From assembly GCA_046497275.1 (NCBI GenBank), contig JAWOFX010000082.1, positions 1 to 8,468 on the forward strand: a stretch of 8,468 nucleotides of DNA, written 5' to 3'. Every line of letters begins with the position of its first letter. The stretch's first letter is position 1. A program made the translations under genes and the position numbers. This document shows, piece by piece, positions 159 through 8,468 of the stretch. The notes under the pieces were generated by a model. The model did no database searches. It was not told where the DNA came from and worked only from the letters and a program-made list of their open reading frames with translations. Origin of the DNA: Promethearchaeia archaeon (lineage in GTDB: Archaea > Asgardarchaeota > Lokiarchaeia > Sigyniarchaeales > SOKP01).

Positions 159-172
159 AAAAACATTTAAAT
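159..172 (+). promoter_or_regulatory. Putative archaeal BRE+TATA element upstream of the AbrB-ligase gene
   Basis: AAAAACATTTAAAT is a purine tract followed by TTTAAAT, ending ~83 nt before ATG 255. It is 13/14 identical to 5847-5860. The AT-rich background lowers significance. Confidence 0.3.
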
Positions 173-254: not shown

Positions 255-2072
255 ATGAAAACTGGAAAAGGAAGAATAACTGAGAAAACCTCTGGAAATA
301 GAGGATATAAAAGCACTTGGTTATATATTCCCAGTAAGCTTTCTAAAGATGAAGATTTTCCTTTTAAAGATGGCGAAAAGGTAATAGTGGAAGTTGTAGA
401 TAACCAGTTAAGAGTGAAAAAAATTTTTACTCTGAGCGATCTCACCCAAGAATATGGAATCCCGGATGCAACTCTGCCTAAGTTAGTAGAAAAAAAAGCA
501 GAATATAATAGAGATAAGCCTTTATTGATATTTCCCGAGAAAATATTCTCTTACCAGGAGGTAAATGAAATTTCAAACAGAATCGCTCATGGACTTTCAG
601 ATCTATTTAAGGAATTAAATTTACATAATCCTAAAATAGCGATCTTCCTTCCAAATTGTCCAGAAGCAATTACGTGTTGGTTCGGAATATCTAAAATTGG
701 GGGAATAGCCGTACCTATTAATTTTATGCTAAGTGATAATGATTTAGAATTTGTTTTAAATAATAGTGACTCAGAACTTCTAATAATAGATTATCAATAT
801 TTTAAGGATATTAAGAAAATTTTAAATACTTTAACAAAAATTAAGAGGATTATAATTCAAAATGCTCCTGCTGGATTTGAATATAATCGAAAATTACTTG
901 ATTTCAAAGTAATCTCTTCAAAGAATTCAAAAAATCCAAATGTAAATATTAAATCTTCTCAGCCGCTAGAAATTTTATATACAGCTGGAACAACTGGACA
1001 TCCTAAGGGAGTGGTATATAAAAATCATCATACTTTATCTGGAATCAGCGTAGGGACAAAATTAGAAGATATAGGATTTGGTGCAGATAATCATAAAGTT
1101 TATTGCCCTTTACCCTTATTTCAGGCTTTTTCACGATATTTAGTTATCATTCCAGCGATGTATTACAATTCAGCAGTAATAATTCCAAACGAATTTGAAT
1201 TATCAACTTTTTGGGATGATATAAATGAATATGCACCTAATGGTTTTTGTTATCTCGGGGCTTACTTATTAGAATTAATGGATAGAGATCCATCTTTGAA
1301 TGATAGGAATCATTCATTAAAGTATGCATTTGGATTTGGAGCATTTAAAAAAATTTGGGAAGCGTTTGAGAGAAGATTTGGGATTAAAATAATTGAGGCA
1401 TGGTCACTTGTAGAGAGTATTGGTTTGACAATTAATACAGTAGGTTCAAGTGGAGGGAAAACAGGGTCGATAGGCATCCCAGCAAGAGGATATGAATTGA
1501 GGATTGTCAATCCAGAAGGTAATGATCTCCCTGCAGGGAGTAATAATATAGGTGAAATTGTTTCGAGGACTAAGCTTCCTATAGAATTGGAATATTATAA
1601 TTTGAAATCAAAATCTAATACTTCCATAGCAAATAATAGGTGGGTTTATACTGGGGATTTTGGATATATGGATCATGATGGGTTTGTCTACTTCCTGGGA
1701 AGAAAATCAGATATGATTCAGAGAGGTGATGAAATTTTCTTTGCTTTAGATATTGAGCGAGTTGCTAATTCACACCATCTTGTAATTAATAGTGCTGTTT
1801 TCGAGGTCTCTGTCGATCATACTTCTGAGACTGCCTTAAAGATATGTGTTGAATTAAAAGGGGAAAATTCTCTAAGCTATTCTGATTTTCATTTATATCT
1901 AAAACATCATTTAGCATATTTTATGGTACCTCGATATATAGAATTTAAGCGGAAATTACCAAGAAATGTTAATGAGCTTGTCCAGAAATTTTTGTTAAAA
2001 AAAGAATGGGAAGATGAAGGCTTAAGAAAAAACACATATGATACACAAACTAAGAAAATGCTTCCTAAATAA
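255..2072 (+). CDS. Fusion protein: N-terminal AbrB/MazE/SpoVT-like DNA-binding domain (aa ~1-57) plus CaiC-like AMP-binding acyl-CoA ligase (ANL superfamily) with degenerate catalytic motifs
   Basis: 605-aa ORF. ANL motifs are recognisable: P-loop ILYTAGTTGHPKG (aa 240-252), A7 YTGD, A8-like GRKSDMI, C-terminal YFMVPRYIEF..LPR. The CaiC-like flavour (PLPLF, FWDDI, FERRFG) is a judgement call. The N-terminal YKSTWLYIPSKLSKDEDFPFKDGEKVIVEVVDNQLRV fits the swapped-hairpin pattern [hydrophobic]-x-IP...-G-[DE]-x-V-x-[hydrophobic]. Confidence 0.85.
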   Translation: MKTGKGRITEKTSGNRGYKSTWLYIPSKLSKDEDFPFKDGEKVIVEVVDNQLRVKKIFTLSDLTQEYGIPDATLPKLVEKKAEYNRDKPLLIFPEKIFSYQEVNEISNRIAHGLSDLFKELNLHNPKIAIFLPNCPEAITCWFGISKIGGIAVPINFMLSDNDLEFVLNNSDSELLIIDYQYFKDIKKILNTLTKIKRIIIQNAPAGFEYNRKLLDFKVISSKNSKNPNVNIKSSQPLEILYTAGTTGHPKGVVYKNHHTLSGISVGTKLEDIGFGADNHKVYCPLPLFQAFSRYLVIIPAMYYNSAVIIPNEFELSTFWDDINEYAPNGFCYLGAYLLELMDRDPSLNDRNHSLKYAFGFGAFKKIWEAFERRFGIKIIEAWSLVESIGLTINTVGSSGGKTGSIGIPARGYELRIVNPEGNDLPAGSNNIGEIVSRTKLPIELEYYNLKSKSNTSIANNRWVYTGDFGYMDHDGFVYFLGRKSDMIQRGDEIFFALDIERVANSHHLVINSAVFEVSVDHTSETALKICVELKGENSLSYSDFHLYLKHHLAYFMVPRYIEFKRKLPRNVNELVQKFLLKKEWEDEGLRKNTYDTQTKKMLPK

Positions 2073-2297: not shown

Positions 2298-3830
2298 ATG
2301 AGAACTCCAGAAGAATATGAAAAAGCGCTTTTAGAGATGAAACCGAATATCTATATCGGTGAGGAGAAGGTGGGAAGAGATGACCCAAGAATTAAGGGAG
2401 GAATGAATATTATAAAAGTCACCTATGAGAAAGCGTGGGATCCAGAATTTGAGGACGTATGCACAGCAACCTCTCATCTCACTGGAGAAAAAATCAACCG
2501 CTTCACCCATATCCATCAAAGTGTAGATGATCTCTTGAAGAAACAAAAAATGACAAGGTTATTATGTCATCGAGTAGGTGGATGCATCCAGCGATGTATG
2601 GGAATTGATGCGTTGAATGCATTATCAGTGATTACCTATGAATTAGATGAAGCACTTGGTTCAGATCATCATCAACGCTTTAATGAATATATGAAATATT
2701 TTCAAAAAAATGATTTGTGTGCGAGTTGCGCACAAACAGATCCGAAAGGAGACAGATTAAAACGACCGCATCAACAAGAAGATCCAGATCAATATCTAAG
2801 AGTTATTGAAAGCAGAGATGATGGGATTGTTGTAAGAGGAGCCAAAATAAATATTACCAACACAGCATATGTAGATGAGTTAGTAGCTGTCCCTGTTAGA
2901 TACATGGGTCCAGAAGATCACGATTATGCTGTGGCATTTGCTTTACCTGCAGATTGGGAAGGTGTAAAATTACTCGCACGACCCGCATGGTTTAGTGAAA
3001 GGCAAAAATATGATGCTCCAGCAGCAAAATTTGGTGATGTTGAAACAATGATAGTATTTGATGATGTGTTCGTACCTAAAGAACGAGTCTTTTTGAATGG
3101 TCATGCAGATCCACGACAAACGGCATATGCAGGATTTTTGGCATTAATGTTTGCCCATTATCATCGGCATTCATATACAGGGTGTAAACCTGCAGTTTCA
3201 GAAATTTTGGCTAGTGCATCAGCTTTAGTATCTGAATATAATGGGATCGAAAAGGAATCTCATGTAAGAGATAAATTATCCCATATAATAGGAACTGCTG
3301 AATTAGTCTACGCTGCGGGAGAATCGAGTGCTTATCATTCCGAAAAAGCGCCGTCTGGAACACAAGTGCCAGATGAAGTTTTAACAAATGCCGGAAGAAG
3401 ACTTGCAGGTGAGATGATCTATAAAGAATATGAAATTTTAGCTGATCTCTCCGGCGGTTTAGTTGCTACTTTACCATATGAAGGTACATTTCTCAGTGAT
3501 GAGGTTGGAGATTTAGCTATGAAATATCTGACAAGAAATCCTAAAATTCCGCAAGACAAGGTTTATAGATGTTTTAAAGGAATCGAAGATTTAATAGTCT
3601 CAGATATGGCTGGTGTTATGCAAGTCGCAGGACTCCATGGTGGAGGATCTCCCCAAATGGAGACAATAACAATGATGATGAGATACGATCTAGAAGAACT
3701 GAAAAAGATTTCTAAGTATCTTTTTGGTATACGCAAAAAATTGGGAAGATATGAAAGACCAACAGTTACTCCAAGAGAACAATTAAAGAAATTTAGAAAA
3801 GCAATGGAAATGAAAAAACAATCTAAATAA
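2298..3830 (+). CDS. abfD: 4-hydroxybutyryl-CoA dehydratase / vinylacetyl-CoA isomerase family (AbfD-like, HpaB/AbfD fold), FAD and [4Fe-4S] protein; divergent active site
   Basis: 510-aa ORF. CIQRCMG (C96, C100) and HYHRHSYTGCK (H289, Y293, C296, K297) match the AbfD cluster ligands (C99/C103/H292/C299 in Clostridium aminobutyricum, numbering from memory). Family motifs TDPKGDR, GAK, VFDDVFVPKERVFL and HGGGSP are also present. Confidence 0.88.
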   Translation: MRTPEEYEKALLEMKPNIYIGEEKVGRDDPRIKGGMNIIKVTYEKAWDPEFEDVCTATSHLTGEKINRFTHIHQSVDDLLKKQKMTRLLCHRVGGCIQRCMGIDALNALSVITYELDEALGSDHHQRFNEYMKYFQKNDLCASCAQTDPKGDRLKRPHQQEDPDQYLRVIESRDDGIVVRGAKINITNTAYVDELVAVPVRYMGPEDHDYAVAFALPADWEGVKLLARPAWFSERQKYDAPAAKFGDVETMIVFDDVFVPKERVFLNGHADPRQTAYAGFLALMFAHYHRHSYTGCKPAVSEILASASALVSEYNGIEKESHVRDKLSHIIGTAELVYAAGESSAYHSEKAPSGTQVPDEVLTNAGRRLAGEMIYKEYEILADLSGGLVATLPYEGTFLSDEVGDLAMKYLTRNPKIPQDKVYRCFKGIEDLIVSDMAGVMQVAGLHGGGSPQMETITMMMRYDLEELKKISKYLFGIRKKLGRYERPTVTPREQLKKFRKAMEMKKQSK

Positions 3831-5663: not shown

Positions 5664-5702
5664 CCATATATTAACTCATTAATATTCTACTTAAGTAATC
5701 CA

Positions 5703-5860: not shown

Positions 5861-5970
5861 GTTAAAAAACATAAATGTAATACATAAAAGTTATTCTATC
5901 ATTAGAGATTTTACTGTAGTAAAGTCGCTATAATTCGTAGAAATCACCATAAGAGGAGCATTTTTTAAGA

Positions 5971-6252
5971 ATGGATTTTTTTTTGAAGAACTTAAGAGAA
6001 ACATTATCAGCCATCAATAAACTTATAGAAGGTAATGTGTATGTTGTAAATACTAAAAGGGTAAGAAGATGTAATAATATTAAATCGTCAAATCGTTCGA
6101 AAATAAACTTCATTTGGCGATCGCTCGCCTTTCTCGAAGAACATAAAATATTAGAACTAAATGGAAAAAGCAATCCTAAAACTTATAAGATTTTACCTCA
6201 AGAGGAATTAGATATTGATAAATTTATTGAAAAAATTGAGGAGCAAAGGTAA
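5971..6252 (+). CDS. Small hypothetical protein, probable winged helix-turn-helix DNA-binding protein
   Basis: 93-aa ORF with AGGAG at 5954-5958 upstream. The pattern of helix, basic helix/turn (TKRVRR..IKSSNRS), recognition-like helix (KINFIWRSLAFLEEHKIL) and beta-wing (LELNGKSNPKTYKI) is typical of wHTH folds. The fold call is pattern-based only. Confidence 0.6.
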   Translation: MDFFLKNLRETLSAINKLIEGNVYVVNTKRVRRCNNIKSSNRSKINFIWRSLAFLEEHKILELNGKSNPKTYKILPQEELDIDKFIEKIEEQR

Positions 6253-6264
6253 TTCATCAAAAAT

Positions 6265-8468
6265 TTAAATAAGATTTAATTTTTCTCTTAAATCTCTCAG
6301 CTTCTCTTTTGTTTTTGTCTCCTCAGGATTATTTATCAACCGTTTTTGATAAAAAAGGATATTTTGATATTTTAATTCTATCTGATTAAACAACTTTATC
6401 CATAAATTAAAACCATCCATTAATTCTTTTACTTTTTCATCTTCTGCAAAAGACTTTATTTTCTCCACATCCTCATCCATATAAGAAATTGCTTTATATT
6501 TTTTTAGTGAATATCCTTGTTCTTCTAAAAATTTTTTATTTAGACGATTGATAATAGCATCAAGTTCACTTCTCCAATGAATATATCTCTCATTTATTCT
6601 ATTGATAGAATTATGAATTATCTTAATTTCTTGTGGATAAATCGTTGAATCTTTCGTTAATATAGTCTTTATTTTTTGAAATTCTCTATTAAATTTATCG
6701 TAATAATTATTAACAATAATTTCAAATTCTTCTAAACTAGAAATGTAATTTTTAGCAAAAATTATCTCATCTCTGGTAAAAGTATAGGTTTCTTCATCAA
6801 ATTCTCCTTCTAATCCTCCACTATCTCTAAGCTCATTGAAAATATCCATCAAAACCTCCAAATCGTTTTCAGTTAATTCTTTACCATAAAATAAGTCATT
6901 AAATGAAAAAAGAGCACCACTAGAAATCATCATCTCTTTGATTCCCTTTTCAGTATAAAATTTCACCTCGTTATCTTCTTCATAGAAAATTCCTTTTAAT
7001 GTTCCTGACTGCTGCAATTCTTCGATAAGATTCTTCATTAATTGTGAATTAATATCATATGTTCCCAAAGTTATAACACTCTGCGATTGGGATTCCGTTT
7101 TGACAAATTCTTTTACTTTATTCTTTGCATTCTCGATTTTAGAGGGATTAAAAATTATAGTATCTCCCTGTATCAAAAAATTAAGATTTAAATCATTTAA
7201 ATATTCTATAAAAATTTCGTATTCCATGCCAGTTTTTGTTAGATATTCTGATATTTTAATTTGGTCTTTGCTTTTTATTTCCTCTCCTATTGATTTAGTA
7301 TTTTCCGCAATTTTGAGAAGGATTTCTTCTTTATTGATGTTTAGTTCTCGAGCAAAAATATTGATTTCTTTCGACTTTTTTTCATTATCTTGAATCTTAC
7401 TAATAGAGTCAATTCTTTCTTTAAGATATTTTGAATAATAAAACACTGTTCTCTCTTTATTCCAAAGCCCACTTCTTTCGTCAATATATGTATCAAAAAT
7501 ATCATATAACAATAACTTATTAATACCAAATTTTTCTGAAATGCGTTTTACATCAAAATATCCAATGATTTTAGTATTTTCTAACTCTCGTTCAATTTTT
7601 AATTTCCCAATATTTGTCAACCAAAAAGTTCTTTCATGAAAATTGGTTAAATATTCTTTTGGGAGATGCCTTATGAGTTTGATAAAAGACTTATCTGTTA
7701 ATTTCGCTTGATAATCCTTTAAGTCAATATAGGTTTCCTTTGTCGCCAGTTCTGTAATCCTTTTTCTAATAGTGTCTATTAGGAAGAATTTATCCTTCTC
7801 TCTCCCTAATAAAACTAAGAAATTATTCTCTTGAATGACATCTTTTATTAATCTCTTTACATAGGGTAAAGGAAGATGATTATAATTCTTTAATTCAATA
7901 ATTCCGTCTTTCTGTAGATCACGAATGAGTTGAGATTTGATATAATTTGCTGGATAAAAATAAAACTCTGAAAGATATCCTTGAATATGTCCTAATTTTA
8001 CTAGAGTTTTGATAAATAGCTTTAAATCATCCTTATTAATAATTTCAGAAAATTCTTCTAAAATTTTATCATAAGGAATCTTTTGCGTTTGATTAAAAAA
8101 TGAATTTAATTTCTCCTTTTCAAGGGCATAAAAATAAATTTGATTAGTTTCTTGATTTTTAGTATAAAAGTAAATTTCTACATCTTTCATACTTAACTCT
8201 TTAAAACTTTCTAAAAATTCATTAAAACTAATTCCTTTTTCTTTATTTAATTTTGTAAAATTATATTTCTTTTTAATAAAACTATTATCTAAAAGCTCTG
8301 TTAATTCATCTGCAGGCTTTGATAAAAAATCTTCTTCGTTTAATGTAGAAAATTCTTGACTTAAAAGAGCGCCTAATGTGGTTTTAAGCATTGCTACATC
8401 TTGATCGAAAAATGATTCAACTATTTCTATACCAATGTTCCTTAATCTGTAAAGATGCTTAAATTTGA
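6265..8468 (-). CDS. Large hypothetical protein, 5'-truncated at the window edge; tandem winged-helix (PCI-like/UFL1-like) repeats followed by a C-terminal helical/coiled-coil region
   Basis: The 708-aa ORF-track frame stays open past ATG 8391 to the window end (...KFKHLYRLRNIGIEIVESFFDQDVA-MLKT), so the real start is probably outside the window. Recurrent motifs LVKLGHIQGYL (7972-8004), LQQSGTLKGIF (6985-7017) and LRDSGGLEGEF (6799-6831), with units of roughly 55-60 aa. Confidence 0.8.
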   Translation of the reverse strand, partial: KFKHLYRLRNIGIEIVESFFDQDVAMLKTTLGALLSQEFSTLNEEDFLSKPADELTELLDNSFIKKKYNFTKLNKEKGISFNEFLESFKELSMKDVEIYFYTKNQETNQIYFYALEKEKLNSFFNQTQKIPYDKILEEFSEIINKDDLKLFIKTLVKLGHIQGYLSEFYFYPANYIKSQLIRDLQKDGIIELKNYNHLPLPYVKRLIKDVIQENNFLVLLGREKDKFFLIDTIRKRITELATKETYIDLKDYQAKLTDKSFIKLIRHLPKEYLTNFHERTFWLTNIGKLKIERELENTKIIGYFDVKRISEKFGINKLLLYDIFDTYIDERSGLWNKERTVFYYSKYLKERIDSISKIQDNEKKSKEINIFARELNINKEEILLKIAENTKSIGEEIKSKDQIKISEYLTKTGMEYEIFIEYLNDLNLNFLIQGDTIIFNPSKIENAKNKVKEFVKTESQSQSVITLGTYDINSQLMKNLIEELQQSGTLKGIFYEEDNEVKFYTEKGIKEMMISSGALFSFNDLFYGKELTENDLEVLMDIFNELRDSGGLEGEFDEETYTFTRDEIIFAKNYISSLEEFEIIVNNYYDKFNREFQKIKTILTKDSTIYPQEIKIIHNSINRINERYIHWRSELDAIINRLNKKFLEEQGYSLKKYKAISYMDEDVEKIKSFAEDEKVKELMDGFNLWIKLFNQIELKYQNILFYQKRLINNPEETKTKEKLRDLREKLNLI

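Follow-up and report, generated by a model that had tools for sequence, protein, structure and literature searches.

The closest described systems to the gene considered here are regulators in which a DNA-binding domain stands beside a second, larger or enzyme-derived domain. In the biotin protein ligase and repressor BirA, an adenylate-forming fold is combined with an N-terminal DNA-binding domain, and binding to the operator, which depends on dimers, is governed by the ligand that the enzyme domain carries. SpoVT of Bacillus subtilis (PDB 2w1t) has a swapped hairpin, the AbrB-type N-terminal domain, fused to a larger C-terminal domain of the ligand-binding type, a GAF domain. BzdR joins a helix-turn-helix domain to a shikimate-kinase-like domain that senses benzoyl-CoA, and controls genes of an acyl-CoA pathway (PMC3602430). 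Here we describe a gene of a Promethearchaeia archaeon, located at positions 255 to 2072 of an 8,468-nucleotide contig (JAWOFX010000082.1; "the window" hereafter means this whole stretch of DNA), in which a predicted AbrB-like module is fused to a body of the ANL superfamily of acyl-CoA ligases that lacks key catalytic residues. The product is fairly likely to be an autoregulated one-component transcription regulator with a pseudo-ligase as its sensor domain, a reading for which the fold, the predicted dimer, the residue losses with their phylogenetic pattern, and a conserved cis-element with its targets were computed.

Neither SpoVT, BirA nor BzdR combines an AbrB hairpin with an ANL fold. 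The fused protein differs from SpoVT in carrying an ANL fold of ~540 amino acids (aa) instead of the GAF domain, in being archaeal and in its putative site, a 12-bp palindrome. BirA, which is class II-like and fully active, has a winged helix, whereas the present protein joins a putative DNA-binding module of AbrB-like type to an ANL fold deprived of key catalytic residues; BzdR is bacterial, and both its DNA-binding fold and its enzyme fold are other ones. A full-text literature search returned no account of a DNA-binding regulator that uses an ANL fold as its sensor, and the preliminary description of the window (made by a model from the letters alone) had likewise pointed to no characterised regulator of this architecture. 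What is new here is the conserved palindrome, a candidate operator, that lies before the fused gene and its neighbours.

The two parts of the protein also have separate relatives. The PRK06155/CaiC-like ligases belong to the same ANL subfamily as the body and share with it an unusual context of motif A10, in which E or Q precedes the basic residue, as well as a (T/V)WD tail at the C-terminus, but they lack the N-terminal domain and keep the A4 His, the A8 GEN and Lys or Arg at A10. The AbrB, MazE, AbrB-type VapB and Sso7c4 proteins (PF04014 clan) resemble the module in predicted fold, in the interleaved dimer and, probably, in autoregulation through a promoter palindrome, which is typical of MazE- and VapB-type proteins of the AbrB fold. 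The domain of the window is, however, too divergent for a direct match to PF04014 and has a signature of its own, W-x-Y-I-P ... F-P-F, common to a set of small archaeal proteins.

The fused gene and its distribution

The gene and its two parts have the following positions.

255 to 2072, plus strand: AbrB-ANL fusion gene, 605 aa (list of open reading frames; full-length homologues across Asgard lineages)
255 to 434, plus strand: predicted N-terminal AbrB/MazE-like swapped-hairpin domain, residues 1-60 (AlphaFold2 model, fold matches, dimer model, profile matches)
453 to 2072, plus strand: ANL (acyl-CoA-ligase-like) body, residues 67-605 (Pfam, NCBIfam, AlphaFold2 model, motif table, alignment with FATP2)

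The window is a whole contig (C89) of a 3.85-Mb genome that consists of 188 contigs and has ~30% G+C. On re-reading the sequence, the open reading frame (ORF), the coordinates and the residues quoted in the preliminary description all proved correct. The Pfam model AMP-binding (PF00501) spans residues 79-439 of the fused protein (E 2e-53) and AMP-binding_C matches weakly (19.3 bits, with a cut-off of 24.5). The top NCBIfam models are PRK06155 (ATP-dependent acyl-CoA ligase), PRK06187 and the CaiC model; these matches are all far under their own cut-offs and all start at residue 67-72, and therefore ~60 N-terminal residues lie outside the ligase body. The extra N-terminal module that had been noticed before a full ANL body is confirmed at ~60 aa and is conserved across homologues.

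A homologue search gave more than 120 proteins of ~600 aa that align to 100% of the query with 40-89% identity. The named hosts of these fused homologues are all Asgard (Promethearchaeota/Lokiarchaeota, Thor-, Hel-, Hod- and Hermodarchaeota), the exception being P0018, the sole fused record filed otherwise ("miscellaneous Crenarchaeota group"); among the sequences found here, this family of probable regulators is thus confined to Asgard archaea. In a 34-sequence alignment the module ranks with the best conserved stretches of the fused protein, and G14, Y18, W22, Y24, P26, F35, P36 and F37 are invariant. An artificial fusion of two ORFs by sequencing or assembly error, which homologues without the module would have implied, is ruled out by the presence of the module in more than 120 full-length Asgard homologues, and a downstream start codon by the conservation of the N-terminal domain at the protein level.

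About a dozen other ANL paralogues are encoded in the genome, none with the N-terminal module. A second, truncated fused copy, with a 94% identical protein, is situated at the end of contig C185 of the same genome. The whole locus is present a second time in this genome, on C185 (24000-36773, L025) and C169 (1-6000, L113), which is explained by a large duplication of recent date or by a mixture of strains in the bin (contamination 4.4%). In a separate record, P0132 (222 aa, from a 1083-nucleotide ENA contig), the N-terminal module (E 1e-18) is followed by Sigma54_DBD (E 1e-44); this combination may be another fusion or a chimeric contig.

The N-terminal module and the ligase-like body

The AlphaFold2 (AF2) model of the module, based on the family alignment, has a beta-beta-alpha-beta-beta fold (strands 7-13, 18-24, 43-48 and 51-56, helix 27-30; predicted local distance difference test, pLDDT, 88), with its elements in the order seen in AbrB and MazE and of the ~50-residue form that characterises the swapped-hairpin superfamily. 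Every Foldseek match with a template modelling (TM) score above 0.4 is MazE, Sso7c4-type, C56/C68, AbrB, SpoVT (2w1t is among the fold matches) or AbrB-type VapB, the best match to a solved structure having E 0.2 and probability 0.92. VIA-align against representatives gave ten matches with Z 2.9-4.6, all of AbrB-type fold, and nothing else above Z 2 save one spurious row. Two copies of the module are predicted to form a symmetric interleaved homodimer, as in members of that superfamily, with a score of 0.66 against 0.01 for the best control; when this score was calibrated, 20 of 30 solved homo-pairs and one of 23 proteins solved as single chains came up to the same mark. Contacts are shared between runs to 98% or more, the partner has a pLDDT of 80 or higher, and the predicted contacts pair residue 23 with 23, 53 with 53, and 43 with 6-8 of the other chain. 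Such a swapped-hairpin dimer is what the preliminary description had expected modelling to give.

Neither residues 1-70 nor the profile of the N-domain family reached an AbrB family when compared directly with Pfam and with PDB sequences; weak matches to MTH865, Peptidase_A4 and NgoFVII B3-like were also obtained, and PF04014 was reached by one of 34 members of the fused family (E 0.063). A bridge in sequence is provided by small proteins: most of the 456 matches of the module profile among 1.8 billion representatives are standalone proteins of 55-100 aa that share the Y-I-P ... F-P-F signature, and 11 of 60 standalone homologues match PF04014 (MazE_antitoxin, the SpoVT/AbrB model) at E ≤0.01, the best at 1.3e-4. 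Its predicted fold and dimer place the module in the AbrB superfamily, to which its sequence connects it transitively only; the AbrB-like assignment made earlier is upheld by the fold, the exclusive fold matches, the dimer model and this bridge taken as separate lines. Residues 1-32 contain 8 Lys/Arg and 2 acidic residues, K31 of the helix is nearly invariant, and the domain presumably binds DNA. A different role, as an antitoxin-like or other non-transcriptional protein of the AbrB fold (e.g., one partner of a toxin-antitoxin system, or a SymE-like protein that binds RNA), is highly improbable; MazE and VapB antitoxins are among the best fold matches and one of the 60 standalone homologues matches the SymE_toxin model, but no toxin gene is a conserved neighbour in the loci compared, the partner domain is a 540-aa metabolic fold and the gene lies in conserved, syntenic metabolic loci.

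The full-length AF2 model (pLDDT 89) best matches ANL enzymes, several of which were solved in the adenylate-forming state (Foldseek: 4wv3, E 5e-38, TM 0.72/0.83). The protein has the two-domain fold and AMP-binding match of the superfamily, and it keeps the A3 P-loop YTAGTTGHPKG (aa 242-252), the A7 TGD (466-468) and the A5 Glu, E387 (in WSLVE, aa 383-387, nucleotides 1401-1415). Within the fused family G245, G248, P250, K251, T466, G467, D468 and E387, as well as the GE of A6, are invariant or nearly so, and the C-terminal NTYD tail (aa 593-596) is conserved. Three features of the closest ANL subfamily have been lost: the A4 His is Gln (PLFQ, aa 287-290), the A8 GEN has become GDEIF (aa 491-495), and the Lys or Arg of A10 is replaced by Leu575 (nucleotides 1977-1979), the last residue of LPRNVNEL (aa 568-575).

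Replacement of the A10 Lys in ANL enzymes strongly impairs adenylation. The placement of Leu575 at this position, proposed in the preliminary description, is borne out by the alignments of the family and of human FATP2, whose TFK lysine aligns on L575 in a hidden Markov model alignment. K578, three residues on, was considered as a shifted catalytic lysine and rejected, because it aligns with the conserved i+3 basic residue of the non-fused relatives and FATP2 and the length of the loop is unchanged. Eight ANL paralogues of the same genome read YG(M/L)(T/S)E at A5 (YWQTE in the acetyl-CoA-synthetase type) and GK at A10, where the fused protein reads WSLVE and EL. Not all the deviations that had been listed jointly as signs of decay are informative: the losses at A10 and A8 are real, as is that at A4, but A3 and A5 are poor indicators. 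The Ser-to-Ala change in the P-loop (A244, nucleotides 984-986) is trivial, most family members having Ser in an otherwise intact loop, and Thr-to-Val at A5 was rejected as a mark of decay, V or I being read there in non-fused relatives as well (YGSVDG). Taken together, the motifs indicate that nucleotide-binding elements have been kept and residues needed for chemistry lost, and the fused protein is presumably inactive as a catalyst.

The history of these losses was traced in a scan of a genome collection that comprised 47 fused Asgard orthologues with usable N-termini and their 24 closest non-fused relatives. The latter have 27-34% identity, match from query residue ~70 and belong mostly to Smithella, Syntrophaceae, Dehalococcoidia and other bacteria. 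In the tree the fused proteins form one clade (Shimodaira-Hasegawa-like approximate likelihood ratio test 100) with a long stem (0.65), nested among the non-fused relatives, and the ANL body most likely derives from a PRK06155/CaiC-like CoA ligase. The motifs are distributed as follows.

Basic residue at A10: non-fused relatives 24/24, basal fused lineages 4/5, crown fused clade 0/41
A4 His (PLFH): non-fused relatives 24/24, fused proteins 8/46
A8 G-E-N: non-fused relatives 23/24, fused proteins 1/46

The A10 motif of the non-fused relatives is (Q/E)(R/K), with 15 Arg and 9 Lys, and the basal fused lineages that keep a basic residue (L065, L071, L066 and L076) all have Arg; in the 41-member crown clade, to which the protein of the window belongs, the residue is L, F, M, Y or T. 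Many non-fused relatives read YGSVDG at A5, and these relatives share the (T/V)WD tail. Since they already depart from the textbook, neither the A5 Thr-to-Val change nor the C-terminal tail nor a residue other than Lys at A10 signals decay on its own, and the earlier caveat that CaiC-like proteins may carry Arg at A10 was well founded. The co-occurrence of the fusion with loss of A3, A5 and A10 residues, which had been put forward for testing, stands for A10, lost in all 41 crown members, but not for A3 and A5, which are undiagnostic, and the basal fused lineages keep Arg. The comparison supports an erosion of catalytic residues that is real and specific to the fused proteins, and the fusion preceded the loss, since Arg is kept at A10 in the basal lineages.

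The same residues bear on whether the protein is a BirA-like trigger enzyme, that is, a still active, perhaps slow ligase that also binds the operator, with bound acyl-adenylate or acyl-CoA as co-regulator. The near invariance of A3, A7, the A5 Glu and the A6 GE, the resemblance of the AF2 model to ANL enzymes, some of them in the adenylate-forming state, and the basal fused lineages, which keep Arg at A10 and His or Thr/Ser at A4/A5 like the presumably active non-fused relatives, are in favour of this alternative, and the operator evidence presented below fits it equally well. On the other side are the hydrophobic A10 of the window protein and of all 41 crown members, the change of the A4 His to Gln, the loss of the A8 GEN, the established effect of replacing the A10 Lys and the canonical ligase encoded in the adjacent operon. 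We consider a trigger enzyme unlikely for the window protein, where Leu575, the Gln at A4 and the missing GEN speak against it; it is the likely description of the basal fused lineages. For the window protein a ligand-sensing pseudo-ligase is preferred because P-loop, TGD and A5 Glu are kept while the A10 Lys/Arg, A4 His and A8 GEN are lost.

Candidate operators and the proposed mechanism

The cis-elements of the window are listed below.

224 to 235, strandless: candidate operator TTACGGTAGTAA (TTAC-N4-GTAA), 31 nucleotides before the ATG of the fused gene
205 to 214, strandless: possible degenerate second site ATACTAGTAA, half-sites 2 bp closer, centre 20 bp upstream of that of 224 to 235, weak alone
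165 to 172, plus strand: candidate TATA element ATTTAAAT, in a block conserved with the contigs of the closest orthologue in the upstream alignment
5911 to 5922, strandless: second exact candidate operator TTACTGTAGTAA, 60 nucleotides before the 93-aa ORF
5687 to 5698, strandless: one-mismatch site CTACTTAAGTAA, in the same intergenic region as 5911 to 5922

The element TTAC-N4-GTAA, ~30 nucleotides before the ATG, is common to the window, the C185 copy and the two contigs of the closest orthologue in an upstream alignment. It was found upstream of the fused gene in 10 of the first 11 loci, including orthologues of 42-63% protein identity, and is doubled, 20 bp apart, in two of them. Among 53 orthologous loci with at least 120 nucleotides of upstream sequence, scored within 120 nucleotides of the start, 33 have an exact site and 40 a site with at most one mismatch, and degenerate site pairs are recognisable in many of the loci that lack an exact one. 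Positions peak at -35 to -31 (21 of the 53 loci), and the distances to a second, looser site show a sharp maximum at exactly 20 bp, with 19 cases where any other distance has 0-9. The background of the exact pattern elsewhere in the same loci is 0.012 per 150 nucleotides, and the window contains two exact sites where 0.14 are expected by chance. The consensus is (T)TTAC-(G/T)NN(C/A)-GTAA(A).

The ~70 Asgard loci contain 102 exact sites, of which ~95 are intergenic, with 20-190 nucleotides between site and following gene start; 38 of the exact sites precede the fused gene itself. The other target genes differ among clades. In the clade of the window they are the Peripla_BP_6 binding-protein and LivH-type permease promoters, the AbfD-like gene and the 93-aa ORF. 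In another clade the target is a 261-aa DUF2284 gene that heads a cluster of DUF2284, B12-binding, RACo and AbrB-ANL genes and has two sites ~86 bp apart in its promoter (L001 4290-9803; L028-L057 around 2100-2300), which suggests that a corrinoid-dependent system is controlled by the same type of regulator. Divergent SBP_bac_5/170-aa promoters are the targets in a third clade, and a 171-aa gene plus a 354/820-aa divergent pair in a fourth. Elsewhere in the genome of the window, a perfect palindrome, TTACTTAAGTAA, occurs at C20:7955-7966 in the divergent promoter of an acyl-CoA dehydrogenase gene and a DUF35 (ChsH2-type OB-fold) gene, possibly a distant member of the regulon.

The simplest reading of this distribution is a small local regulon whose operator would travel with the fused gene, and an operator that travels with a gene is the usual signature of an autoregulated factor. 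The proposal that the gene encodes a regulator had been made from the coding sequence, and the palindrome before the gene and its neighbours gives it independent support.

Several observations weigh against a regulator of this kind. The fold matches of the module are weak in absolute terms (Foldseek E 0.2, Z no higher than 4.6); low scores are usual for a domain of ~50 residues, and the module is called AbrB-like because its matches are exclusive to one fold, not because of the height of the scores. The N-domain of the window has no match to the Pfam AbrB family (PF04014) at E up to 10, and the dimer prediction may lean on dimers of AbrB and MazE that have been solved. The Arg present at A10 among the non-fused relatives indicates that the clade tolerates departure from the textbook Lys, and the strong conservation of P-loop, TGD and E387 also fits residual catalysis. 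Regarding the palindrome, the genome has no overall excess of the pattern (43 sites, 15 of them outside long ORFs, with ~32 predicted by composition), no exact or one-mismatch operator is present at 2073-2297 of the window, before the AbfD-like gene, and another factor could bind the element. The loci were moreover chosen by containing the fused gene, which makes it partly circular to note that they have it in common; the arguments free of this circularity are the constant position, the phasing at 20 bp and the clustering of sites within the genome. As to the clustering, 6 of the 15 intergenic sites of the genome fall in the two AbrB-ANL loci: 224 and 5911 in the window, one before the fused gene of C185 and two in the divergent promoter of its permease operon and binding-protein gene, and one before the copy of the 93-aa ORF on C169. 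Finally, that the protein binds DNA, and this element in particular, and senses a ligand is what we infer, together with the sign of regulation, the effector and the catalytic inactivity.

In the mechanism proposed for the regulator, two chains would pair through their N-terminal AbrB/MazE-type swapped hairpins, and the dimer would bind (T)TTAC-N4-GTAA(A) before its own gene and before neighbouring ones, either within the core promoter or a short way downstream of it, a placement that suggests repression. The regulated neighbours in the lineage of the window would be the Liv-type ATP-binding cassette (ABC) transporter operon with its canonical acyl-CoA ligase, the AbfD-like dehydratase and the 93-aa ORF. 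The pseudo-ligase body would bind a carboxylate with ATP/AMP, or else an acyl-AMP or acyl-CoA from the pathway under control, and this signal would alter either DNA binding or the pairing of two operator-bound dimers 20 bp apart. From the gene context we would guess at the carboxylate imported by the transporter as the effector, either along with ATP or in the form of its acyl-AMP or acyl-CoA; a compound of the 4-hydroxybutyrate type is one example.

Neighbouring genes and wider meaning

Two genes downstream of the fused gene are of interest as candidate members of the regulon.

2298 to 3830, plus strand: homologue of the AbfD family (4-hydroxybutyryl-CoA dehydratase/vinylacetyl-CoA isomerase; 1u8v, E 2e-101)
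5971 to 6252, plus strand: conserved 93-aa ORF (orf93) without family match, candidate regulon member (synteny, operator)

The first of them matches the AbfD structure (PDB 1u8v) at E 2e-101 and HpaB at 1e-37, and the Pfam label HpaB (4-hydroxyphenylacetate hydroxylase) was rejected on the ground of this better match. It contains GGCIQRC (C-x3-C) and H-x6-C motifs, which we take to be the positions of the AbfD Fe-S ligands. The gene is syntenic in L020, L022 and L023, with an operator 21 nucleotides before its start in L022. The 93-aa ORF is syntenic in L020, L022 and C169, always with TTAC-N4-GTAA exactly 60 nucleotides before its start, and may belong to the same regulon. On the minus strand a 708-aa ORF (6265-8391) runs to the end of the contig and is possibly longer; it has no Pfam or NCBIfam match, and a 777-912-aa counterpart occupies the same place in C169 and L020.

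In the clade of the window the locus has one part on the minus strand, an operon that encodes two permeases, a pair of ABC ATPases and a ~445-aa HEAT-repeat protein, and another part made up of the binding-protein gene, AbrB-ANL, the AbfD-like gene, PurH and orf93, of which AbrB-ANL through orf93 are on the plus strand. Where the contig reaches that far (L024, C185), the next gene after that of the HEAT-repeat protein is a canonical 561-aa ANL ligase; a working enzyme would thus be at hand in an operon of inferred control, which fits a sensor derived from a ligase. The 445-aa protein, composed entirely of HEAT repeats and conserved in this Liv-type transporter operon (L025 4665-6002, minus strand; L021 and L024), is an unusual partner for a transporter. 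Neighbours differ by clade, and no single gene partner is conserved across all lineages.

Salt-lake metatranscriptome contigs from two studies match positions 489-2050 and 2446-3802 of the window at 99-100% identity. They reach neither 1-488 nor 2051-2445, which places transcript ends and co-transcription outside their reach; the matches are compatible with expression of the fused gene and the AbfD-like gene, DNA carry-over being possible. Such transcripts would also suit a housekeeping enzyme, and the fused proteins are annotated in their sources as AMP-binding protein or crotonobetaine/carnitine-CoA ligase and are encoded among genes of acyl-CoA metabolism and uptake. The protein could accordingly be viewed as an ordinary metabolic CoA ligase, with an AbrB-like module that serves dimerisation or protein interaction and a palindrome that belongs to an unrelated regulator. 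We regard this as improbable, given that residues kept by all non-fused relatives and paralogues have been lost, that the palindrome tracks the gene at a fixed distance through lineages in which the other neighbours have changed, and that all solved proteins matching the fold of the module bind DNA.

With the regulator as the preferred reading, we see an even chance that a broader picture holds in all its parts: an Asgard-wide family of transcription factors with a decayed ANL sensor and an AbrB hairpin as DNA reader, acting at TTTAC-N4-GTAAA operators that are often paired at 20 bp and re-wired by lineage to different local regulons (carboxylate uptake with AbfD, a corrinoid/RACo cluster, peptide-type ABC transporters), in which the fusion came first and catalysis was lost later.

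Asgard archaea are the closest known prokaryotic relatives of eukaryotes and, to our knowledge, few of their transcription factors have a known ligand or binding site. The family described here offers a testable Asgard factor together with a candidate operator and candidate target genes. The label crotonobetaine/carnitine-CoA ligase, or AMP-binding, probably inflates the ligase count in metabolic reconstructions of these organisms. If the sensor role is true, a large and well-understood enzyme fold would join the list of sensor domains. The fused proteins also constitute a graded natural set for the change from enzyme to regulator, from basal members with Arg at A10 and, in some, the A4 His, to crown members without the basic residue at A10 and mostly without the A4 His; if catalysis was indeed lost after the fusion, they would form a natural series from trigger enzyme to pure sensor.

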